In this document: positions 6,989 to 64,000 of the stretch, in pieces
How the letters are laid out: each line of letters opens with the position of its first letter
Numbering within the stretch: position 1 is the first letter of the stretch
Assembly (NCBI GenBank): GCA_963808235.1
Contig: CAWEEQ010000002.1
Span: 128,001 to 192,000 of the forward strand
Length of the DNA: 64,000 nt
Source: an uncultured delta proteobacterium
Lineage (GTDB): Bacteria > Desulfobacterota > Binatia > Binatales > Binataceae
Direction of reading: 5' to 3'
The notes under the pieces: generated by a model
What the model was told of the DNA's origin: nothing
The model's input: the letters and a program-made list of their open reading frames with translations, nothing else
Databases searched by the model: none
Translations under genes and position numbers: made by a program

Positions 6989-7438
6989 ATGAGCGACGAC
7001 ACGCGACTCCTGATGTGTCCCGAGAATCTCCACGAAGGGATGCGGCTGGGGCCGATTCACTACGTTGTGATGCCGGAGCGGGCGCGTGCGTTCGCGAATG
7101 CGGTTGGCGCGAAGAATCGTGCTTTCATTCCCGACCCGGAGACTGATGAGGCGCTCGCGTCGCCGACGATGCGCCTGCAGGATTATGCGCTCCTCATCGC
7201 CGCTCATCTGAAAGGCGGGAAGGGAGGAGTGCACGCGAAGCATTGGTGCGAGTTTCACGAGCCGATGCTCGTGGGGCAGGCGATAAAAACCGAAGGCAAG
7301 ATCACGGCGGCGTTTCGCCGTCGCGGAAAATTCTACTTCACGCTCGAATATGAATCGCGCGACGCGGTGACAGGCCGACTGTTGGTCAGGCAGGCGATCA
7401 CCTCGGTGCTGCTGAACGACAAGGGAGAGATGCAATGA
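6989..7438 (+). CDS. MaoC-like hot-dog fold protein
   Basis: GVHAKHWCEFHEPMLVGQ; stop overlaps next start (ATGA). Confidence 0.7.
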   Translation: MSDDTRLLMCPENLHEGMRLGPIHYVVMPERARAFANAVGAKNRAFIPDPETDEALASPTMRLQDYALLIAAHLKGGKGGVHAKHWCEFHEPMLVGQAIKTEGKITAAFRRRGKFYFTLEYESRDAVTGRLLVRQAITSVLLNDKGEMQ

Positions 7439-55645: not shown

Positions 55646-55677
55646 CACATGAATTTGCGGATTTCGAAGGTCTAATT

Positions 55678-55721
55678 TGGTGGACGCACCTGGACTCGAA
55701 CCAGGGACCTCTTGCATGTGA
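55678..55721 (-). mobile_element. 3' half of tRNA-Val(CAC); att junction at the left end of a genomic island
   Basis: Minus strand TCACATGCAAGAGGTCCCTGGTTCGAGTCCAGGTGCGTCCACCA; no D arm or 5' acceptor strand upstream. Confidence 0.85.
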
Positions 55722-55868
55722 GTTGTGCAACCTTGCGTAAACGCCAGAATAGTCTGATATCGCTCGATAGCGCTACAAGGTAGCGAAAGCGCTGTGGCAG
55801 AAGGGTTTTCTGTGCACGACTAAAGTGCGACCATCAGTTACAGAGTACTTTCGATTGATCTCCGGTTG

Positions 55869-55909
55869 GGGCACAGAATCGGGCACAGAGGGCACAAAAT
55901 TGGGCACAG
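55869..55909. repeat. Four GGGCACA direct repeats; tyrosine-integrase arm-type sites
   Basis: GGGCACAGAATCGGGCACAGAGGGCACAAAATTGGGCACAG, about 150 bp inside the att core. Confidence 0.75.
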
Positions 55910-55928
55910 CAAATCGGACGCCGGCGCG

Positions 55929-56810
55929 TCACATCCACGAAGCCTTCTGCGGATCCCAGCGGCCGGTCGCGCGGCCGGCCAGCACAGGATCGAGCAGCGC
56001 CGCCGCTTGCGCATAGCCCCGACGCAGGTCCGGATCGAGACCAACTTCGTTGGCCAGCTTCCGGTATGGGACCGCCCATTCGGGCGGCGGTGGCGGGAAC
56101 CGATCCGGAAGACCATGTTGACGCCTTCCCTCAAAAACTCCTTCGAGCGCACTGCGAAGGCGAGCGGCGTCCAGCACCATGAGTTGTTTCACGAGGACAA
56201 GATCGACGAGATCTTTTGCGCGACTGCTCCGGCGACCTTGGCCGTAGGTTTTTGTGTATGCGTGGACCTTCTCCGCGATGTGTTGCTCAAGCGGCAGGAC
56301 TGGCACTTCGATCGGTTCGATGTCGGCGAACGCCAGTAGATCCTGTCCGCGAATCGGTTCGGGCTTCCATTTCAGCGAGTCTGAAAACCCGATATCGACC
56401 ATGACTTCCTCGAACCGCCTGCCTGCGAGTTCGGCTCGGACGCGGTATCTCACCGCGAGACCTTCAACCTCTTTACCCGGCGCTCCGACCTTTTCTATGT
56501 CGAAGGTAAAGTAGTCGTCGATCTCGACAGCTTGGGCGGCTATGAAGTCAGCGGTGGCCGCCGTCTCGTCGTCGCGGTGAAAGATATCCATGTCCTTCGT
56601 GGTCCGCGTCCGTTCTCCCATCCGGAAGTCGAGGGCCAGCGCTCCCTTAAGAACCCAGCGGCCTGGCGCGGCGATCGCGAGACGAAAGAGAAGGCGGTCA
56701 AAGACGACGGCCTTTCGCAGCCGGACAAGGGAAATGCCCTTGTCACGCGATCGCGTGAGCAGACGCTGCTCAAGTGCTTGACGAAATGCGGCTCCGCTTT
56801 GGTACTTCAT
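55929..56810 (-). CDS. Type IV TA nucleotidyltransferase toxin, AbiEii/AbiGii family
   Basis: VLKGALAL, RTTKDMD, AEKVHA, SRAKDLVD; start overlaps the antitoxin stop. Confidence 0.9.
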   Translation of the reverse strand: MKYQSGAAFRQALEQRLLTRSRDKGISLVRLRKAVVFDRLLFRLAIAAPGRWVLKGALALDFRMGERTRTTKDMDIFHRDDETAATADFIAAQAVEIDDYFTFDIEKVGAPGKEVEGLAVRYRVRAELAGRRFEEVMVDIGFSDSLKWKPEPIRGQDLLAFADIEPIEVPVLPLEQHIAEKVHAYTKTYGQGRRSSRAKDLVDLVLVKQLMVLDAARLRSALEGVFEGRRQHGLPDRFPPPPPEWAVPYRKLANEVGLDPDLRRGYAQAAALLDPVLAGRATGRWDPQKASWM

Positions 56811-57427
56811 TTGCGGTGTCGCGCCTCGAGAACTTGTCGAACAAGGCGCTCGACTCGACCTCCACGCGTCTTCGCAACCCCGAGGAGTTTTGATTCGGTT
56901 GCCATGCCTCGGTCGAGTGCCTGGCCGACTGCGGCCATTATCTGCTCCGGGGCGGTTCCCGCTTGGGCCGCGTCGATGATCGAGCGCGCCGGTGCGGTCA
57001 CTCGAACTCCGTCGCGCACCACGACGTCGGACTTGGCAAGGCGCCGCGTTGTCGTGTGTATCGCGACGCCCAGAGATGCGAAGCGATAGCGCCTCGCTCG
57101 GGGGACGGTAAGGTGAACGACCTCGGGCACCACGTCGGAAAGCCCGAGGATGTCGAGCGCGCTTTCATGCGATACAACGGTGTTCTCTCTTCCCGACCCA
57201 AGCCACGCCGCGATCACGTCTTCGCGGGGTGAACTCGGGTATTCGCGAATGCGGTAGAGGCCCTGACGGACTCGGGAAAAGCGGCCTGATTTGGCATGAT
57301 GCGCCAGTAGCGATTTACTAAAGCCGCACGAATGCGCCTGAGCGGCAGTGAAATATCCCCCCTGCTCAGAGGCGATTTCGAAGAGCTGTGCGCGCCGCGA
57401 CTTTGATTCGAGATCATTGTCACGCAT
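56807..57427 (-). CDS. Type IV TA antitoxin, AbiEi family
   Basis: QGGYFTAAQA, RVRQGLYR, VVSHESAL, HLTVP, VTAPARSIID. Confidence 0.9.
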   Translation of the reverse strand: MRDNDLESKSRRAQLFEIASEQGGYFTAAQAHSCGFSKSLLAHHAKSGRFSRVRQGLYRIREYPSSPREDVIAAWLGSGRENTVVSHESALDILGLSDVVPEVVHLTVPRARRYRFASLGVAIHTTTRRLAKSDVVVRDGVRVTAPARSIIDAAQAGTAPEQIMAAVGQALDRGMATESKLLGVAKTRGGRVERLVRQVLEARHRK

Positions 57428-57434
57428 AGGTCAA

Positions 57435-57462
57435 ATGATACTTGACTTTATCATGACATCAA
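57435..57462 (-). promoter_or_regulatory. sigma70-type promoter of the abiE operon (leaderless), overlapped by an imperfect inverted repeat
   Basis: TTGATG-16-TATCAT-7-ATG; TTGA...TCAA repeat at 57442-57462. Confidence 0.6.
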
Positions 57463-57511
57463 ATACTGCAACAGATTGTTCAGGCTTCGGAGCTTGTTTC
57501 TCGAAAATGAA

Positions 57512-57532
57512 TGTTCCACGTTACGTGGAACA
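57512..57532. repeat. 21-bp palindrome resembling parS with a 5-bp central insertion
   Basis: TGTTCCACGT-T-ACGTGGAACA. Confidence 0.7.
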
Positions 57533-57679
57533 GCAGGTTTCGCGCATCGCAGCGGCGCATTCGCCGCTCGACGAATGACGGCGACGACTCCAGAGGGTAT
57601 TGAACGACATCAATCCTTACGCCGATTCACTTCTATTCATGGCAACCTGAATTAGGCCTCAACTAGGACAGGAAAAGCG

Positions 57680-57871
57680 ATTACTGAAACATGTAAGTTA
57701 TGCGGTGAGGAATCGACACCGTGGGAATACATCGACGTGCTCGACGGTCACGTGTGCGCGGACTGCAGCTACCGGCTGGCTGCGCTGTTCGCGAATGATG
57801 GGTCGCTATCACGGGCCGACCTGCTTGCGGTGTACGGAACCGAAGCCCGGAAGAAGGCGGACTTGCCATGA
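57680..57871 (+). CDS. Small CxxC...CxxC zinc-finger protein with ATT start (or decayed start)
   Basis: (M)TETCKLCGEESTPWEYIDVLDGHVCADCSYRLAALF...; AGGA 6 nt upstream; not in the ORF track. Confidence 0.5.
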   Translation: MTETCKLCGEESTPWEYIDVLDGHVCADCSYRLAALFANDGSLSRADLLAVYGTEARKKADLP

Positions 57872-57939
57872 GGCGGTTGGAGATGCTCGCTTTGATCTGA
57901 TCTCACTTCAATGTGGCCGCGCTCACGTGAGCGCGGAAA

Positions 57940-58014
57940 CGAAATGGCATACGCAGAGGACTTAAAATCCTCTGGAGCGAAAGCTCCGTGCGGGTTCGAG
58001 TCCCGCCCCCGGCA
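57940..58014 (+). pseudogene. tRNA-Leu(TAA) lacking its first ~10 nt (att-type fragment)
   Basis: D loop, GAGGA-CTTAAAA-TCCTC, GGAGC-GAAA-GCTCC variable arm, T arm and 3' CCCCGGCA present; the 5' GCCGGGG is absent. Confidence 0.8.
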
Positions 58015-58072
58015 ATTGAAAATTAAGGGTTTTCTGGCGAGTCGTCGCTGCAAGCGGGACTAGTCTGCGCCG

Positions 58073-58096
58073 TTGACAGCCACGTTTGACAGCCAC
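58073..58096. repeat. Tandem TTGACAGCCAC x2; second arm-type site array
   Basis: TTGACAGCCAC-GT-TTGACAGCCAC, about 60 bp after the tRNA-Leu 3' end. Confidence 0.7.
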
Positions 58097-58134
58097 GGGT
58101 TCGCGGATTCTGTTGCTAGACTAGGTTCGCAACG

Positions 58135-58367
58135 TAGGGGTCGAGAGTTCAAATCCCCTCTGCTCCACACCTCAGTCTCCAGGGTTTCGGACATGGCGGA
58201 GAATCGATCGAAATCCGCGCGTGTGCGCGCGAATTGCGCACATGTGCGGACCCGGAGAATATCTCTGTCGCCCAGAATTGGCCTAATCTGGCGAAACCTA
58301 TCCCGGCGCGATTAGCCTAGGTCCGCGGATCATCGCCATGCATTCGCCTTTTCTTTTTCAGCGCTCC
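58135..58367 (+). repeat. ~230-bp direct repeat, copy 1, headed by a tRNA-Ala-like 3' end
   Basis: Colinear with 63601-63824, e.g. GCGCACATGTGCGGACCCGGAGAAT, AATCTGGCGAAACCTATC, CTAGGTCCGCGGATCATCGCCATG, TTTTTCAGCGCTCC. Confidence 0.92.
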
Positions 58368-58530
58368 GCCAGCTTAGAATCAGGAATCTCCAAATGCACG
58401 GGTCGCGGGTCGAGTTGGTTTTTAGGGTCAAAGGTAAGCTCCTCGCCACTGACCTGCCGCCCGAATTTCTCGGAACGCGCAACCAATGGCAGCCAATCCA
58501 AGTGCGCAACCTTGACGTATGTATAGACGG
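58358..58530 (-). pseudogene. Possible 3' remnant of an unidentified gene
   Basis: YVKVAHLDWLPLVARSEKFGRQVSGEELTFDPKNQLDPRPVHLEIP reads as protein-like; no credible start. Confidence 0.3.
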
Positions 58531-58656
58531 TAGTGTTAAGTGGCAGGGACTGACTTGTCTGTGGCTTAGTTTCCGAAGACAATCTGCCACCTCTTGCAGA
58601 GATGCGCTCAGGTAATGCCGATGCCGCGTGGGCAAGGCGGTTTCGCGGGAGGGTTC

Positions 58657-59124
58657 GTGCGTCTGAAAAAAGGGTTTCTGCTGATCTTATTCTTAGCCTT
58701 GACATCCTGCGCTTCCAACAACTCCACTCCGACGCCGCCGAGATCCCAAAGCAACGCCGGACAGGCTGTATCAAAAAAAGACACGGAAACAATCCAGTCG
58801 GCATCGGGCGAGAAGTGCATCATAGATGAGAAGAGAATCTGCGAAGAGGGGGCGGCGGGAGTAGCGAACGATCCCTTCGGCGCTGACAACAGCGAGGACA
58901 TACGTGAACGAATCGCCTCGGGTGATGATACGGGCGGGTCGAAAACCTACACCTCGACGCTGCGCTATGGAGTCTCTCTTCTTCAAGGGGAGCGACCGGT
59001 GAATTTGTTTTGCGGCATGAACATGCACCAACGCGCGTTTGCTTACGGTCAATTGTCTACGAGCGGCACCCCCACCGATACAGATGTCGCAAAGCTGCGC
59101 GCCGGGGGGTACTGCTCCAACTAA
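58657..59124 (+). CDS. Hypothetical lipoprotein with four further Cys
   Basis: SD GGGAGG before GTG; lipobox LTSC. Confidence 0.75.
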   Translation: MRLKKGFLLILFLALTSCASNNSTPTPPRSQSNAGQAVSKKDTETIQSASGEKCIIDEKRICEEGAAGVANDPFGADNSEDIRERIASGDDTGGSKTYTSTLRYGVSLLQGERPVNLFCGMNMHQRAFAYGQLSTSGTPTDTDVAKLRAGGYCSN

Positions 59125-59142
59125 GACTGGAGGAGGCCAGCT

Positions 59143-61866
59143 ATGCCGACAACGATCCGCAGGATCACAATCGGCAACAATCGGGCTTGGAGATCGATGC
59201 GTACGAATATCCGCCTGGGCTGCGCGGTCTCAATGCTCACATTCTGTGTTTTGGCTTCGTCCACAGTTCGATCCGAAAGCAATCCGGTTCCTATTCCCTC
59301 TCCCGCGGGAAGTCGTGACCAGGCGGTTGACAAGACCGAAGCAGCGCTTCGCGACGAGCTGCGCACGCTAGAAGCGCAAAATCCCAATAGTATTGAGGTC
59401 ACCAAAGATCTCGATCTCCTTGCTTGGTACTATTGGAATCACGGCCGGTTCTCCGACGCTGAACCATTGTTGATACAATCGCTAGCAATCAAGGAGAAGT
59501 CACTGTCGGCAGATGATTCTGCGATCGAGGAGAATATAGATAGGCTTGGGGAACTCTACGCCTGGGAGGGGCGATTCTCGGAAGCGGAGCGACTCCTAAA
59601 TCGCGCGCTCCAGAGCCCGGGTGAAGAAGATGTGGCGAACCCGTGGTTGGCGGGCCGCGCGCACATTTTTCTCGGCACCGTATACCTCGAGGAGGGAAAG
59701 CTGCAAGAGGCGGAAACGTTGCTCAAGCAGGGCCTCGAACTCCGGCTTAGAACCACCACACGAGGCACCGGAATCGAAATTACCTACGATCTACGAAGCT
59801 TGGCCGAATTGTATTGCGAGGAAGGGCGTTTCGCAGAAGCGGAGCCTTTGGGATCCCAAAGTATGAAGCTGAGCGAGCCCAATAGTCTCATATATGCGTA
59901 CGCGCTTGACACGCTCGCTGACGCCTATTACGGCGAGGGCCGGTATGCCGACGCAGAACGTCTATATTCCGAATCGGGTCCAATCCTCCTGCGTCAAATG
60001 GGAGACGCTCACGTCTACTACGAACAGAATTTGGGCTCGCTCGGACTTACGCTCGCGAAGGAAGGAAAAGTCCAGCCGGCGCGGGACAGCTTTCGCAAAT
60101 CATGGGCGGTCAATCTAAATACCTGGCATGCGGCGACGCAGTCGGGCAGCGAGTCTTTGCGTTTTCTCAGGAACAAAAGCGATCAATATGTCCGAGGTTA
60201 TCTGGAATTGCTGGCCGCGATCGCGCGCCATCCAGAAATGGACCCGGGCGGTGCGTCACCGGCACCCGAGGCGTTCATGGTCGCAGAACAAGCGCGCCGG
60301 GGTATCACCGATCTTGCACTGGTCAAAGCGGCGGTGCGGCTTGCAGTCGCCGACCCGGATGCCGGCGAGGCTGCCGCCGAAGTGCAGCGCCTCAGCGAGC
60401 GGCGGGCTGGGATGGCAATGCAGCTTTCGACGCAATTCGGCGCTTCGAAAGAAAATCAGCAAGACGCAGCTAAAGTTCTCGCAGAATCGCAACAGCTTGA
60501 CCATGACCTGGAGATCGCAAACCAGCGACTGATTCAAGTCTTTCCAAAATATGGCGAGTTAGCGACGCCGTTGCCTATCGACGTAGACGGCGTACAACGA
60601 GTACTGCGCGCCGACGAGGCGCTGGTCAGTTACTACACGCTCAACGACCGGCTACTGGCGTGGTGCGTGCGACCCGGTCATCCGCTGGCATATCGCGATA
60701 CCGAAGTTAAGCGCGCAGATCTGATGGCGATGGTCGCGCAGGTTCGCGAGAGCCTTCGTCCCGACAAACCGTTCGACTTCGTTGACTCATACGCGCTCTA
60801 CCAGTTGCTTATAGCTCCGTTGAAAGATGAGCTTGCCAGCACCAAGTTACTTATCATCGTACCGGACGGGGTAACTCTGCCGATTCCTTTCGCCGCGCTG
60901 GTCACTGACAATACGGGCGATGCGTTTGCGGCGTTGGCACGAGATTATAAGCAAGGTCTCGCGCCATCGCCCGCTGAGTTGAAGGACAACTATCCCCGTA
61001 TTGCCTGGTTCGCAAAGAGAAGTATGAGCATTAGTCTCCTACCTACGGCCACTTCTCTCCGACTACTCAGAAATCGGGTCGAAGCGAGCAACACCGCGAA
61101 CGCGTCATCGGCCAAGGCTTACCCCTTCGTCGGAATCGGCGATCCGTTGCTGAACGGCAAGGGCGAAGAGCGTGGTAGCTCGATGGTGGCGACGCGAGGC
61201 GCCGAAGCAATCGACGCGGTGCGGAATCTGCCGAGACTTCCCGGTTCGCGCGAGGAGCTAATGGCTGAAGCTAAGGCGCTCGATGCCAATCCTCAAGAGT
61301 CGCTCTTCATGGAAGAACGGGCGACCCGGCCGCAGGTGCTGGCGCTGAGCAAAGATCGTTTGCGCGACGCAAAGGTAATCTCGTTTGCGACACACGCGCT
61401 CATAGGTGGCGAGATAAAGGGAGTCATGGAACCGTCTCTGGTGCTCACACCACCCTCGCAGCCGAGCACAGACGATGACGGATTGCTTACGATGGACGAC
61501 GTGATGGGATTCAAGTTGGTCGCCGACGAGTGGGTAATCCTCTCTGCCTGCAACACGGCGGCTCCTGACGGAAGTGGCGAAGGACTGTCAGGCCTGACCC
61601 GCGCGTTCTTTTACGCGGGCACTCCATCGCTGCTGGTCTCGCAATGGGCCGTTGATGACGCAGCGACCGATCAGCTGATGACCGCGGTGTTCACGGCTTA
61701 CGGAAGCAGCGGCGGAGTCTCGCGCTCAACGGCGCTGCAGGGAGCGATGCTCAAGCTGATGGACATGCCGCGCACTGACCCGACACACGCCTACTTCGCC
61801 CATCCGTTCGCCTGGGCATCATTCGTCGTAGTCGGCGAAGGCGGCGGTTCTCAACCGACCAAGTGA
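59143..61866 (+). CDS. TPR-CHAT (caspase-like) protease with a predicted N-terminal signal sequence
   Basis: TPR units (GRFSDAEPL, GRFSEAE, GRFAEAE, GRYADAE), IVPDG..PFAAL, FATHA (His), LSACNT (Cys), GEGLSGLTRAFFYAG, HPFAWASF. Confidence 0.93.
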   Translation: MPTTIRRITIGNNRAWRSMRTNIRLGCAVSMLTFCVLASSTVRSESNPVPIPSPAGSRDQAVDKTEAALRDELRTLEAQNPNSIEVTKDLDLLAWYYWNHGRFSDAEPLLIQSLAIKEKSLSADDSAIEENIDRLGELYAWEGRFSEAERLLNRALQSPGEEDVANPWLAGRAHIFLGTVYLEEGKLQEAETLLKQGLELRLRTTTRGTGIEITYDLRSLAELYCEEGRFAEAEPLGSQSMKLSEPNSLIYAYALDTLADAYYGEGRYADAERLYSESGPILLRQMGDAHVYYEQNLGSLGLTLAKEGKVQPARDSFRKSWAVNLNTWHAATQSGSESLRFLRNKSDQYVRGYLELLAAIARHPEMDPGGASPAPEAFMVAEQARRGITDLALVKAAVRLAVADPDAGEAAAEVQRLSERRAGMAMQLSTQFGASKENQQDAAKVLAESQQLDHDLEIANQRLIQVFPKYGELATPLPIDVDGVQRVLRADEALVSYYTLNDRLLAWCVRPGHPLAYRDTEVKRADLMAMVAQVRESLRPDKPFDFVDSYALYQLLIAPLKDELASTKLLIIVPDGVTLPIPFAALVTDNTGDAFAALARDYKQGLAPSPAELKDNYPRIAWFAKRSMSISLLPTATSLRLLRNRVEASNTANASSAKAYPFVGIGDPLLNGKGEERGSSMVATRGAEAIDAVRNLPRLPGSREELMAEAKALDANPQESLFMEERATRPQVLALSKDRLRDAKVISFATHALIGGEIKGVMEPSLVLTPPSQPSTDDDGLLTMDDVMGFKLVADEWVILSACNTAAPDGSGEGLSGLTRAFFYAGTPSLLVSQWAVDDAATDQLMTAVFTAYGSSGGVSRSTALQGAMLKLMDMPRTDPTHAYFAHPFAWASFVVVGEGGGSQPTK

Positions 61867-61920
61867 TGCTACGGCTGACAAAGGGACAGGTAATCTTGCG
61901 AGCGCTTTAGGAGCGCGATC

Positions 61921-62514
61921 ATGCGAAGGAGCGTTCGTGAAATACTGGGCGACGGTCTAGTAGGCATTGTCGGCGCCGCGATCGGATTCGGAATTTCTCA
62001 AGGAGTCAACTTTTACAGTTTGTCAAAAACTCTTGAGACCACCAGAGACATCCAGATGGTTAATCTGGCGCGGCAACTCTCGGGCGACTTTGAAGAGAAC
62101 AAGGACTTCGAAGACTTCCGGATGGCTATCGAAAGATGCGACCCGCTGTTCAACGGTTGGCGCTGGCCAGCCGGAAACGGCCCTACAGTCTGGCGGGGAA
62201 GGTTTAACAATGATCAGGTGAACAGATATCTGAACTTTTTCGACGATATAGGATTCTACAATAAACGTGACGATCTCAACCTTGAGATCGTTCGACAGAT
62301 GTTTGGGCCATATGTTGTCGAAGCGTATGAAGAGCCGGAGATAAAGTGCTACATAGAGGGCTTACATACTCAGGCGCATCAGTCTTCGGCCTTCTCGCAT
62401 TTTGTACTATTAGCGCGTGGACTCGAAGCTGCAGAACCTGATCTGGCTGCCTTTGAGCGGAATAAGTTCGCGAAAATCTCTCACTTTGACTGCCCGCTTT
62501 CAGGGAAAAAATGA
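61921..62514 (+). CDS. Membrane-anchored hypothetical protein (DUF4760-like)
   Basis: N-terminal TM; YLNFFDDIG...LNLEIVRQMFG...FSHF pattern. Confidence 0.6.
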   Translation: MRRSVREILGDGLVGIVGAAIGFGISQGVNFYSLSKTLETTRDIQMVNLARQLSGDFEENKDFEDFRMAIERCDPLFNGWRWPAGNGPTVWRGRFNNDQVNRYLNFFDDIGFYNKRDDLNLEIVRQMFGPYVVEAYEEPEIKCYIEGLHTQAHQSSAFSHFVLLARGLEAAEPDLAAFERNKFAKISHFDCPLSGKK

Positions 62515-62553
62515 CCAACATGCAGCGGAGTAAGGGCGGTAGAGGAGAAAAAA

Positions 62554-62907
62554 GTGATCAAACAAATCGCGGTGGTGGCGGCTTCGGCGATGGTCGTGGT
62601 GACGATAGCATTCGCGGCTGGGGCACCTGCCGCATACGCTGCGCCCAAGGTTGATTGCGACACCGTCATGAATGAATTGCATAAAGGCAAGGATGCCAAC
62701 GATGTAGCAACGGCCCTGTCAATCTCAGTCTCGAGCGTCGATCAATGTAAGAGGCACGCCAAGGCCGCGGCCGACTCTGGCACAGGCGCCTCCAGCGAGA
62801 AGTCGCAGCCGCAGGCTTCGCCGGTTCTCCGAGGCGGTGAGTCAGAAGAGAGCGCGGGAGGATGTCCGCAGGAGCCTTGCCCTCCAGACGCAAGCAACCC
62901 TCGATAG
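62554..62907 (+). CDS. Secreted hypothetical protein with an HTH-like segment between two Cys
   Basis: SD GAGGAG, signal peptide AYA-A, VDC...DVATALSISVSSVDQC. Confidence 0.72.
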   Translation: MIKQIAVVAASAMVVVTIAFAAGAPAAYAAPKVDCDTVMNELHKGKDANDVATALSISVSSVDQCKRHAKAAADSGTGASSEKSQPQASPVLRGGESEESAGGCPQEPCPPDASNPR

Positions 62908-62909
62908 GC

Positions 62910-63195
62910 GGTAGGATTTCGGAAGGTTCAGCGCGATGATCTCCGATGCCGCGCGCCGAACGCTGGAAATGTCTGACAGGTCGCACAGAACCGATGCCGC
63001 ACTCTGCCCTTTTTGGTCGATGATCTTCTTAACGTCGTCGAGCCTCTGGCTTTCACGGCCGACCAGCATGACATGCCGTGTTTGGCAAGTTGCCAGGGCC
63101 GTCGCACGGCCGATCCCCGAAGTCGGGCGGGTGATGAGGTACGCTTTGCGAGTTGACGCGTTCTTAAAACCGGTCTCCGGCATATCTGTCTCCAT
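62910..63195 (-). pseudogene. Truncated SDR oxidoreductase (N-terminus only)
   Basis: YLITRPTSGIGRATA (degenerate TGxxxGxG), LVGR, CDLSDISSVRRAA, then breaks off. Confidence 0.78.
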
Positions 63196-63234
63196 TTTTG
63201 TCTGTCTAGTCAGTCTTTCCTTGGCCAAAAAAAT

Positions 63235-63500
63235 TTAGGCGACGATTCGCCAGAGGGCCTCGAACGCACTCGCGCCATGTTTGCCTCGTTGACTGGGTCG
63301 CGGATCACGAAGTCGATCGTTGCTTTCGCCAGCCCGTTCATCAAAGGCTGCGACGAACCCCAGCGGAGTGTCGCGCATTGGCCCATTTTCACGGCTCCGC
63401 TCCAGTAGCTTTGCGACGCCAGCCATCGCCCGGCTCGCATTCCGATGGCTCTCCAAGCCGATCCTAGCGATACCGTCAAGATCTTCCCTGGAGAAAAAGT
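63235..63500 (-). pseudogene. Frameshifted C-terminal remnant of a TetR-like regulator
   Basis: PLGFVAA / LMNGLAKATIDFVIRDP / AFEALWRIVA pieces lie in different frames upstream of the SDR. Confidence 0.55.
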
Positions 63501-63600
63501 CGCGAAGAGCTGGCGATGATTATCTCTGCGGCACAGCTGCTTTAATCTTCGGCGAATTTGTCGCCAAATCCGCGGACAATTTTGCGATGAAAAGGCGAAC

Positions 63601-63824
63601 TAGGGGCCGGCGGTTCAAATCCGCTTTGCTCCACCATTCAGTCTCTCGATTTTCGGACATCGCGGTAATCGGCGCGTGTGCGCGCGATTTGCGCACATGT
63701 GCGGACCCGGAGAATCTCTCTTGTCGCGCAGAATTGGCCGAATCTGGCGAAACCTATCGCGGCGCGATTTGGCTAGGTCCGCGGATCATCGCCATGGATT
63801 TGCCTCTTCTTTTTTCAGCGCTCC
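63601..63824 (+). repeat. ~230-bp direct repeat, copy 2, headed by a T-arm and TGCTCCACCA
   Basis: GGCGG-TTCAAAT-CCGCT-TTGCTCCACCA, then the body shared with 58135-58367. Confidence 0.92.
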
Positions 63825-63852
63825 TCCTGGGGTGACAGCAGAATCCTGGCTG

Positions 63853-63999
63853 CTATGGGCGGACTTCATAGTAGGCGTTGATCGGGTTATCGAAGTCCTT
63901 GGTTGCGAAGCGCGTGAATCCGGCCTCCGCCGTCATCTTGCGGGCGACCGGTTCGGGAAATCCGAGCGTGCCCAATCCCAAGCCGTCGGGCTCAGAAAG
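63853..63999 (-). CDS. C-terminus of a probable SAM-dependent methyltransferase (partial)
   Basis: LSEPDGLGLGTLGFPEPVARKMTAEAGFTRF..DFDNPINAYYEVRP*. Confidence 0.7.
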   Translation of the reverse strand, partial: LSEPDGLGLGTLGFPEPVARKMTAEAGFTRFATKDFDNPINAYYEVRP

Positions 64000-64000
64000 A

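Follow-up and report, generated by a model that had tools for sequence, protein, structure and literature searches.

The two repeats described here are probably the tRNA-proximal ends (attL type) of Binataceae-specific integrative islands that accreted serially at a tRNA gene. They lie in a 64,000-nucleotide stretch of Binataceae DNA, hereafter the window, and each joins a 3' piece of tRNA-Ala(CGC), termed the head, to a conserved non-coding module of ~155–185 nt, termed the body. In relatives, the repeat family is linked to tRNA genes, forms arrays, separates variable cargo and adjoins a large serine recombinase (LSR). From these patterns we infer that the serine recombinase catalyses integration, that the window copies arose by serial integration at tRNA genes, with their local history taken from relatives, and where the crossover would fall.

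We compared the two copies with each other and with the genome's own tRNA genes. Direct repeats had been predicted at 58135–58367 and 63601–63824, and both were recovered as three colinear blocks of 78–95% identity, or 83.2% over 238 nt in a single alignment (E = 2e-66). Both copies start in a tRNA-like manner (GTTCAAATCC ... TGCTCCAC), their heads are more divergent (78% identity) than their bodies (91–95%), and they have the common terminus TTTTTCAGCGCTCC, all in agreement with the original prediction; family-wide conservation ends at ATTCGCC, ~15 nt before that terminus. The TTCGCAA ahead of copy 1, noted earlier for its resemblance to an anticodon loop, is that of tRNA-Ala(CGC): positions 58120–58167 align to the last ~50 nt of an intact tRNA-Ala(CGC) that this genome encodes at C2:77940-78015, such that the copy 1 head spans the anticodon stem to the acceptor end. 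In copy 2 the head extends from the variable loop onward, and its T-stem (GGCGG/CCGCT) is paired. The features of this part of the window are as follows.

55672–58014, no strand assigned: AbiEii/AbiEi toxin-antitoxin cassette, the left context of copy 1 (AbiE domains by Pfam)
57931–58014, plus strand: degenerate tRNA-Leu(UAA) copy (Rfam tRNA 30.4 bits; no ARAGORN call)
58015–58119, plus strand: spacer that several relatives carry downstream of tRNA-Leu(UAA), with two TTGACAGCCACG direct repeats
58120–58171, plus strand: copy 1 head, the 3' ~50 nt of tRNA-Ala(CGC) and 4 junction bases
58172–58367, plus strand: copy 1 body, long variant (nhmmer profile 3–182, E = 1e-55; covariance model 203.9 bits)
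58368–63491, no strand assigned: cargo between the copies (Pfam; no recombinase)
59143–61866: CHAT-TPR protein, in the cargo
61921–62514: DUF4760 protein, in the cargo
63492–63599, plus strand: conserved arm upstream of copy 2, 'class 2' (7 such units aligned, from 6 relatives and this genome)
63600–63636, plus strand: copy 2 head, with a variable loop resembling that of tRNA-Ala, a paired T-arm, the acceptor 3' strand and CCA
63637–63824, plus strand: copy 2 body, long variant with a 12-nt internal deletion (nhmmer profile 2–180, E = 6e-48)
63853–64000, minus strand: winged-helix methyltransferase gene, 3' end, continuing past the window edge (Pfam)

To the left of copy 1, the AbiE cassette is 99.4% identical over 2343 nt to that of one relative (G059), in which both flanks are different. 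At its left edge it matches tRNA-Val(CAC) over the 3' 48 nt, and its right end is the 5'-truncated tRNA-Leu(UAA) copy, which is 95% identical to the genome's own tRNA-Leu(taa) and has a tRNA-like 3' portion of ~75 nt with the 5' acceptor strand gone; an intact tRNA-Leu(UAA) with the same downstream spacer occurs in another relative (G020:C9). In metagenome contigs that match the window from 58120 onward, the 5' half of the tRNA precedes the match. Family conservation extends to ~58352 in the copy 1 body, the tail up to 58367 being common only to copy 2, and to ~63813 in the copy 2 body, which scored 157 bits with the covariance model. The cargo also includes ORFs of unknown function, a small exported protein and a truncated short-chain dehydrogenase fragment; across 46 further genomes of the genus, matches to the cargo were all fragmentary and of low identity. 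The class-2 arm, which matches further relatives at 73–81%, opens with GCGAAG-n4-GGCGATGAT, in which words from the body's 3' end recur in inverted form, and we interpret it as the right-end arm belonging to the element on its left.

The earlier claim that each copy is followed by the 3' end of a minus-strand gene held for copy 2, where the methyltransferase flank is kept in many relatives from just past the body (90–95% identity from query positions 7312–7354 onward), but not for copy 1, which is followed by ORFs without a Pfam match. A TetR-like remnant reported next to copy 2 had no Pfam match, nor did tblastn with a relative's TetR recover it (E > 4); the truncated short-chain dehydrogenase fragment lies near its supposed position. 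Three other identities were discarded. ARAGORN called no ordinary or permuted tmRNA in the window, the genome's tmRNA being elsewhere; the start codon of a 13-codon minus-strand frame in the body is lost in other copies; and a search for a decayed integrase 3' end, using a tyrosine integrase in tblastn, hit that integrase gene alone in C2 and had no match in the arrays of five relatives.

The repeat extends well beyond this pair, with ~11 copies or fragments in the genome on C1 and C2 (12 nhmmer hits, one copy being hit in two pieces). Three of these lie directly behind intact tRNAs, two of tRNA-Ala(CGC) and one of tRNA-Met: bodies begin 1–3 nt past tRNA-Ala(CGC) at C2:77940c and tRNA-Met at C1:338838c, while a 35-nt insertion separates tRNA and body at tRNA-Ala(CGC) C1:169430. 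Many copies are truncated in ways expected of decay. The body was present in 12 of 17 other sampled Binataceae genomes and across six Binataceae genera, and was not found in any of 133 genomes representing 18 further families of the class. Among 28 body junctions at 27 loci in relatives, 11 follow an intact tRNA-Ala(CGC), one a tRNA-Val(CAC) and one a tRNA-Lys(CTT), and the remaining bodies are headless or preceded by recurring classes of tRNA-like head. Particular upstream arms accompany particular head classes, which fits the simple model of serial integration only if the junctions are old and inherited as units. The TTCAAAT T-loop, considered as a sign of an element-borne end, occurs in 10 of 52 tRNAs and is not diagnostic. 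This distribution makes it very improbable that the repeat is a miniature inverted-repeat transposable element or a local segmental duplication, an explanation that we disfavour even though the class-2 unit has inverted terminal words and copies 1 and 2 (A and B) have ~15 nt in common past the conserved end of the family. The copies go with tRNA 3' ends or tRNA-like heads, on one strand behind the tRNA, and are limited to tRNA-linked arrays on C1 and C2, apart from a single weak partial match on the main 3.85-Mb contig.

We then compared arrays across relatives. An intact tRNA-Ala(CGC) heads the array in six of six examined (G003, G006, G012, G013, G020 and G088), with 3–11 body hits on one strand over 9–90 kb; no intact tRNA was found at the head of the window's array with ARAGORN or Rfam. 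Genomes are syntenic on the left flank (LarC, DksA, NTP-transferase) and cease to resemble one another at the 3' end of the first body. An OmpA-family right flank is conserved after a degraded terminal body in the window's genome (G000), G003 and G006. The repeats delimit variable cargo, and the arrays have few blocks in common. Blocks with a methyltransferase and an enoyl-CoA hydratase are 93–95% identical between G000 and G003 or G020, compared with 80–85% for the core left flank, and their order is swapped between G000 and G003. Unit spacing is mostly 0.8–25 kb and up to ~50 kb in G088, with the smallest units at 0.8–2.5 kb; the cargo is multi-gene and on both strands, and most cassettes lack a recombinase. 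One relative (G041:C45) has the order tRNA-Ala, body, 2.2 kb, class-2 arm and head, body, recombinase, such that a recombinase-less cassette of 2.2 kb precedes a recombinase-bearing element.

A recombinase linked to the repeat unit was found in autonomous relatives, in the form of an LSR that converges on the body from 17–612 nt away at eight kinds of tRNA. It has Resolvase (PF00239) and Recombinase (PF07508) domains by Pfam and is 557 aa long in G006 and 570 aa in G088; one relative's recombinase is nearest to CcrB and XisF in NCBIfam. Homologues occurred in 62 of 120 other Binataceae genomes sampled. We examined 30 best-per-genome loci, 27 of which were informative in that at least 450 nt follow the gene on its 3' side, and a tRNA and/or body converges within ~650 nt in 16 of these 27 (15 of 26 without the unpublished genome G224). 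The tRNAs were Ala-CGC (5), Val-CAC, Ser-GCT, Ser-TGA, Ser-CGA, Ser-GGA and Arg-TCG, and a further body, at locus L126, is preceded by a tRNA-Met fragment. Counted from the body, 8 of 74 hits, which include overlapping loci and some places counted twice, had a convergent recombinase match within 1.5 kb by tblastn. Seven of the eight are of the short variant and the eighth match is a 63-residue remnant; the long variant, to which the window copies belong, was never found beside a recombinase among the 74 hits. No LSR of the linked family was found in the window's genome, and because of this the window units, which we take as relics of recombinase-less islands, are probably immobile.

Other recombinases were sought at the same loci. 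Among 89 ORFs flanking bodies at 38 loci, NCBIfam identified one recombinase, a CcrB-like serine recombinase, a count that is too low because the loci include only C-terminal parts, and tblastn was used instead. No tyrosine recombinase (PF00589) was found within the arrays of G003, G006, G012 and G013. A tyrosine integrase of the tRNA-targeting phage-integrase type (C2:195171-196406) abuts the truncated copy F just outside the window and was rejected as the family's enzyme: 14 of 46 further genomes of the genus encode a homologue, none was found in G003, G006, G013 or G020, and its relatives adjoin other tRNAs, with no body hit at E < 0.005.

The scarcity of recombinases also bears on an integron-like alternative, in which arm, head and body are the active sites of non-autonomous cassettes captured and shuffled in trans by a recombinase encoded elsewhere or by an element of another cell, and the tRNA and body would act as attI. 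Units without an internal recombinase, the absence of tyrosine recombinases from four arrays and the single recombinase among flanking ORFs (in a scan that misses C-terminal fragments) would be expected, as would units as small as the smallest ones here, the 2.2-kb cassette of G041 ahead of a recombinase-bearing element, the swapped methyltransferase and hydratase blocks, the bounds of the class-2 unit, with inverted words at the ends of ~315 nt, and the two covarying helices of the body described below. We nevertheless consider this alternative unlikely, given that many copies are truncated as by decay, that the window's genome has no LSR of the family, that multi-gene cargo lies on both strands, and that no circle or excision product was seen, the contig joints fitting the repeats of relatives. 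It seems similarly improbable that arm, head and body form a folded portable site at which an LSR acting in trans captures recombinase-less cassettes at tRNA genes, with the helices serving recognition or control; this would amount to an integron-like array system that uses a serine recombinase and docks at a tRNA gene.

Replacement of a tRNA end could be followed at a tRNA-Val site. Five relatives with the same left flank have one common tRNA-Val T-arm and trailer, while G009 has a different, compensated T-arm at this site, followed by a body and, 507 nt on, by the recombinase. Comparison of these sequences indicates that in this one case the T-arm was replaced by an element-borne copy, with the crossover located 5' of the T-arm and at least 35 nt of the tRNA replaced. 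The attR junction of the G009 element was not found; the native downstream gene is on another contig and has no tRNA fragment. Dyad symmetry at the tRNA/body junction involved 11–13 of 24 positions, compared with ~12 in shuffles. We also searched four soil DNA runs from one study, available as contigs and containing 15–24% of the sampled words, and saw no excision product or circle in the assembled contigs; no RNA run containing the sequence was listed. Two joints, 58237>63740 and 63599>58137, cannot show excision because they fit the repeats of relatives, their source sequences being only ~85–90% identical to the window.

Covariation was assessed across the family to determine which structures are conserved in the body. 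The hairpin described in the original prediction is exact in both window copies but gained no support as a structure conserved in the family, as its two central pairs are unpaired in 27–28 of 32 members and its covariation was no better than in shuffles (score reached in 329 of 500, percentage paired in 256 of 500). The accompanying argument that G-T pairs form only on the top strand did not hold family-wide (89 G.U vs. 55 A.C cells; 21 vs. 19 columns), and strand assignment from G.U pairs was abandoned for want of asymmetry. Two other helices do covary, at columns 84–91/163–170 and 124–131/152–159, which are 94% and 82% paired, each with 4 pairs changed on both sides; double changes were found at 21 pairs compared with 10.3 ± 1.6 in shuffles (64 distinct copies, in an alignment fitted to the model). 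The idea of a structured non-coding RNA gains indirect support from these two helices; neither a strand preference nor an Rfam family was found.

We weighed the possibility that the body is a host-useful structured RNA co-transcribed with the tRNA, of which elements carry a copy to restore the split operon. The covarying helices would agree with this, as would bodies that start 1–3 nt past the tRNA in most copies. Copies adjacent to a tRNA keep at least the short-variant length (profile 2–155 or more), save one cut by a contig end, whereas distal copies decay, and the ancestral locus probably included a body, since a degraded one lies against the conserved right flank. Paired DNA repeats fit the covariation equally well, however, because G.U and A.C pairs show no strand asymmetry. 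The only hits above threshold in Rfam 15 were two tRNAs, and the best match within a body was raiA-hairpin at 19 bits (threshold 43.7 bits, E = 6.8). Folding energies were modestly below those of mononucleotide shuffles on either strand, and a promoter and terminator scan returned nothing above shuffles or consistent, with one weak terminator-like hairpin in the class-2 arm. The same body follows several tRNA identities and stops at a different point in recombinase-bearing elements. Taken together, a host RNA is quite unlikely. Under serial island integration, our guess is that the ~120 nt of the body beyond the att core are binding sites or a folded element controlling recombination or recombinase expression.

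In the integration model that we favour, the head would be an element-borne substitute for the 3' part of tRNA-Ala(CGC) and the body a non-coding module of 155–185 nt adjoining the att site, and an autonomous member would be ordered as head, body, convergent LSR gene, cargo and right-end arm. Elements arriving one after another would recombine with the tRNA gene at a point 5' of the T-arm, each newcomer restoring the tRNA with its own head and pushing the earlier head and body downstream, which would produce a same-strand series of head and body units with variable cargo between them. The window would then hold part of such an array, translocated or rearranged and lacking its intact tRNA, in which unit A occupies 58120–63599 (head, body, CHAT-TPR cargo and class-2 right arm) and copy 2 (B) opens the next unit, abutting the conserved methyltransferase flank. 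The original prediction correctly stated as a rule that ordinary att duplications consist of the tRNA end alone; the extra length here is element DNA adjoining the att site, and is common to the copies because successive elements are related. A head of 37–50 nt with a 155-nt module is atypical for the LSR class and counts against the model, as do the lack of a local LSR and of an intact tRNA at the head of the window's array, the failure to find the long variant beside a recombinase, dyad symmetry no higher than chance at the tRNA/body junction, the pairing of head classes with upstream arms, the lack of an attR at G009 and the tyrosine integrase at copy F.

Serial insertion of islands at tRNA genes is a known route of gene gain, to which the conserved, folded-looking stretch of the body adds a feature. 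It would account for the gain of accessory and defence genes at one tRNA hot spot by widespread, uncultured soil Binataceae, and the body model provides a sequence marker for mapping such islands in metagenome-assembled genomes. If it is true that LSRs integrate into tRNAs and restore them, they represent a recombinase family with many natural conserved targets, and the body module may point to an unknown control element.

Islands of Prochlorococcus tycheposons likewise grow at tRNA genes by serial integration, and 910 of 937 of these elements have tyrosine recombinases, the rest having LSRs (bioRxiv 10.1101/2020.12.28.424599). As far as the passages of that preprint describe them, the two systems are alike in having the tRNA at the island's proximal end, newcomers that push older elements inward, scattered partial tRNAs and degraded elements, and island DNA that mostly does not belong to an intact element. 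Unlike tycheposons, the linked enzyme here is an LSR, no replication module was seen in one annotated 50-kb element, and a covarying module of 155–185 nt, for which those preprint passages contain no counterpart, lies beside the tRNA piece in every unit.

The arrays resemble those of integrons in their uniform orientation, single anchor site and structured repeats between variable cargo, as well as in the predominance of units without a recombinase and in repeats of species-typical sequence. Integron attC sites are 60–140 bp long and their cassettes are single, mostly promoterless ORFs in one orientation, whereas the repeats here are 2–3 times longer (~230–315 nt) and include a tRNA piece, the cargo is multi-gene and on both strands, and no IntI-type tyrosine recombinase was found in the four arrays searched. 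In the site-specific accretion of streptococcal integrative elements with cis-mobilisable elements (CIMEs) and in tandem ssrA islands, tyrosine integrases act on short att repeats and mobilisation in trans has been shown; here, in contrast, the units are LSR-linked with long repeats, and mobilisation in trans is a proposal. The likeness to CIMEs and to the ssrA islands of Dehalococcoides (PMC3146451) is in att-flanked units without recombination genes of their own that lie in tandem with autonomous elements at one site.

The closest enzymatic comparison is with the LSRs phiC31, Bxb1, CcrAB and XisF, with which the relatives' protein of ~560 aa has in common the Resolvase and Recombinase domains and a gene at the element end by the att site. 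Proteins of this class are ~450–700 aa long and use short, quasi-symmetric att sites with a 2-bp crossover and no long common segment; known examples target protein-coding genes, with att sites of ~50 bp. We know of no LSR-class enzyme that needs a conserved, covarying 155-nt module beside its att site, and our literature search returned no description of a tRNA-targeting LSR family like this one or of Binatia mobile elements. The family described here differs from known LSRs in that it appears to target eight or more kinds of tRNA, each in its 3' part, and a replacement tRNA end is carried by the element.

We recovered both direct repeats that the original prediction had described, and they are a real feature of the window: a repeat search aligned them as three colinear blocks (93 nt at 91%, 65 nt at 78% and 55 nt at 95%), and BLAST gave 83.2% identity over 238 nt (E = 2e-66). 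Each consists of a tRNA-like 3′ piece, the head, and a conserved non-coding module of ~155–185 nt, the body.

Repeats in the window and the arm preceding the second
58120–58367, + strand: copy 1, opening with the 3′ ~50 nt of tRNA-Ala(CGC)
63492–63599: class-2 arm, the conserved upstream arm before the head of copy 2
63601–63824, + strand: copy 2, starting at the variable loop, with a paired T-stem

The TTCGCAA preceding copy 1, likened earlier to an Ala(CGC) anticodon loop, indeed belongs to the tRNA-Ala(CGC) portion that begins at 58120. ARAGORN called no tRNA at the start of either copy and Rfam had no family for either body, the sole Rfam match reported in the window being a degenerate tRNA-Leu(UAA)-like copy at 57931–58014 (30.4 bits).

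Copies were counted, as had been proposed, in the four contigs (4.59 Mb) of the genome, where the window is C2:128001–192000. nhmmer found 12 body matches, confined to contigs C1 and C2, and BLAST added one weak partial match on the large contig. A full body directly follows an intact tRNA-Ala(CGC) at C2:77940c and an intact tRNA-Met at C1:338838c, while at C1:169430 a 35-nt insertion separates an intact tRNA-Ala(CGC) from its body. The same-strand series continues just past the window with a full copy at 194028 and, at 195104, a head whose body breaks off after ~40 nt. The 3′ end of a gene for a 412-aa tyrosine integrase (C2:195171–196406; L031:13168–14406, minus strand) lies 24 nt after this truncated copy. 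Homologues of the integrase at 84–90% identity occur in G004, G056 and G062, and more distant ones adjoin tRNA-Ser, Phe, Arg and Glu genes. RHS-repeat protein genes lie at C2:72–78 kb and C2:217–226 kb (L032, L033), after the second tRNA-Ala(CGC) with its body and after another body fragment.

By BLAST, 18 of 24 further genomes of the genus carry the body, against none of 16 drawn from ten other families; a covariance model found it in 12 of 17 other sampled Binataceae genomes (six of eight genera) and in none of 133 genomes from 18 other families of the class. Across 28 body junctions in 27 loci, an intact tRNA-Ala(CGC) precedes 11, tRNA-Val(CAC) one and tRNA-Lys(CTT) one, and the others are preceded by tRNA-like heads whose recurring classes each have a particular upstream arm. 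In all six arrays examined in relatives, the same-strand body series starts behind an intact tRNA-Ala(CGC).

Body arrays in relatives
G003: 11 body matches, 90 kb span
G006: 5 body matches, 58 kb span
G012: 6 body matches, 34 kb span
G013: 4 body matches, 22 kb span
G020: 3 body matches, 9 kb span
G088: 3 body matches, 52 kb span

Synteny holds across the left flank (LarC, DksA, NTP-transferase), and the genomes cease to resemble one another where the first body ends. A shared OmpA-family flank adjoins a degraded terminal body in G003, G006 and contig C1 of the window's genome, which marks C1:169430 as the ancestral hot spot there and places the window's series away from it, without its tRNA. 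The second tRNA-Ala(CGC) with a body, on C2, means that the genome has two such tRNA genes, one outside the ancestral locus. In the G003 array, there is a deletion derivative (88090–88202; L071) whose class-2 arm runs straight into the final ~50 nt of a body, which suggests recombination between words repeated in arm and body.

The original prediction proposed looking for a consistently linked serine or tyrosine recombinase. No tyrosine recombinase was found within the arrays of G003, G006, G012 and G013; the G006 array encodes a large serine recombinase with Resolvase and Recombinase domains. Homologues of it occur in 62 of the 120 other Binataceae genomes searched, frequently in multiple copies and pieces, and none was found in the window's own genome. 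Among 30 best-per-genome loci, 27 had enough flank to judge, and in 16 of these (15 of 26 without the unpublished genome G224) a tRNA and/or body converges on the recombinase 3′ end within ~650 nt. The tRNAs are Ala-CGC (5), Val-CAC, Ser-GCT (2), Ser-TGA (2), Ser-CGA, Ser-GGA and Arg-TCG, and a further body is preceded by a tRNA-Met fragment. Bodies linked to the recombinase are of the short variant, ending ...GCTAGGTCC; both window copies are of the long variant, and no body of that type was found next to an intact recombinase gene. The G088 element runs tRNA-Ala, body, small zinc-ribbon ORF, recombinase, DUF2924 gene and ~47 kb of metabolic cargo; neither transfer nor replication genes were recognised in it. 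In some elements (L119:1762–2031 in G088; also L045, L148), the stretch from body to recombinase encodes a basic 89-aa protein with a CxxC...CxxC pattern, and in G088 the start of the recombinase gene is overlapped by the DUF2924 gene; both products are candidate directionality or accessory factors.

At the tRNA-Val(CAC) site, one T-arm and trailer are common to five relatives that have the same left flank, whereas G009 has a different but paired T-arm and the same acceptor end, followed by the body and, 507 nt on, the recombinase. This comparison indicates that the element recombined 5′ of the T-arm and brought its own tRNA 3′ end, which explains why heads resemble tRNA ends and why displaced heads pile up downstream. 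Each element would recombine 5′ of the T-arm, restore the tRNA with its own 3′ end and displace older heads downstream. Both the catalytic role of the serine recombinase and the exact crossover position are inferred. A search for the far junction of the G009 element found none, nor was dyad symmetry found at the tRNA/body junction.

Structure within the body was assessed on 32 distinct full copies.

Helices in the body alignment
Columns 84–91 with 163–170: long-range helix CGCGGACC/GGTCCGCG, 93.7% paired, 4 pairs changed on both sides
Columns 124–131 with 152–159: inner helix, 81.6% paired, 4 pairs changed on both sides

The covariation score was 0.138 against 0.108 ± 0.006 in shuffles, none of 500 reaching it, and 64 distinct copies in a model-fitted alignment, biased towards structure, gave double changes at 21 pairs against 10.3 ± 1.6. 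The hairpin proposed earlier as a kept structure showed no covariation, and the top-strand argument from its G-T pairs does not extend to the family, in which G·U pairs favour neither strand. The palindrome AAATC-n-GCGCG-TGTG-CGCGC-GATTT is almost invariant, which permits no covariation test either way. The class-2 unit (~315 nt; window 63492–63813) has inverted words at both ends, GCGAA-n5-GGCGATGAT. Our guess is that the body binds protein or acts as a folded control element for recombination.

The islands carry accessory and defence DNA of ordinary kinds, including a CHAT-TPR protein, DUF4760, a Kelch protein, transporters, a type I restriction system, a ThiF/multiubiquitin set and RHS proteins. 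Across 46 other genomes of the genus, the window cargo is matched only in fragments and at low identity. Window 59143–62514 encodes a TPR-CHAT (caspase-like) protein of 907 aa and, after it, a DUF4760 protein; the two may form a defence pair, found in no other of the 47 genus genomes searched. The methyltransferase and enoyl-CoA hydratase blocks by copy 2 are 93–95% identical to those of G003 and G020, compared with 80–85% for the core left flank, and the two genes are adjacent in swapped order here (window 63811–64000, C2:191811–193802) and in G003 (array 86013–88029), which together point to exchange between lineages. A second enoyl-CoA hydratase copy at C1:174699–175763 is followed by the same arm and head.

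The G006 island behind tRNA-Ala (L072–L073, G006:C1:564–590 kb) holds several defence-type sets: a ThiF/multiubiquitin pair, a type I restriction-modification system, an IrrE-like protease with an HTH protein, and a MazG_C/5-hmdU DNA kinase pair. At window 55672–58014, a 2343-nt AbiEii/AbiEi toxin-antitoxin cassette is 99.4% identical in G059, where both flanks differ; its edges are a 48-nt tRNA-Val(CAC) 3′ fragment in reverse orientation and a 5′-truncated tRNA-Leu(UAA). On G020:C9 (L089), an intact tRNA-Leu(UAA) precedes the same 105-nt spacer, with two TTGACAGCCACG repeats, that follows the degenerate copy in the window (57931–58119); after the spacer come the 3′ half of a tRNA-Ala and the initial ~40 nt of a body, so that tRNA-Leu(UAA) looks like a second hot spot receiving tRNA-Ala-type units.

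Overall, the results support the first interpretation offered for the repeats, retained ends of a tandemly integrating element. The interest lies in the conserved body and in a family of putatively tRNA-targeting serine recombinases. Literature searches on serine-recombinase integration at tRNAs and on mobile elements of Binatia returned nothing relevant, though relevant descriptions may exist elsewhere. The defining features of an integron, looked for in the arrays and their units, were absent. Among the processes described in the sources consulted, the closest are the growth of islands by serial integration at tRNAs in tycheposons and accretion with cis-mobilisable elements.
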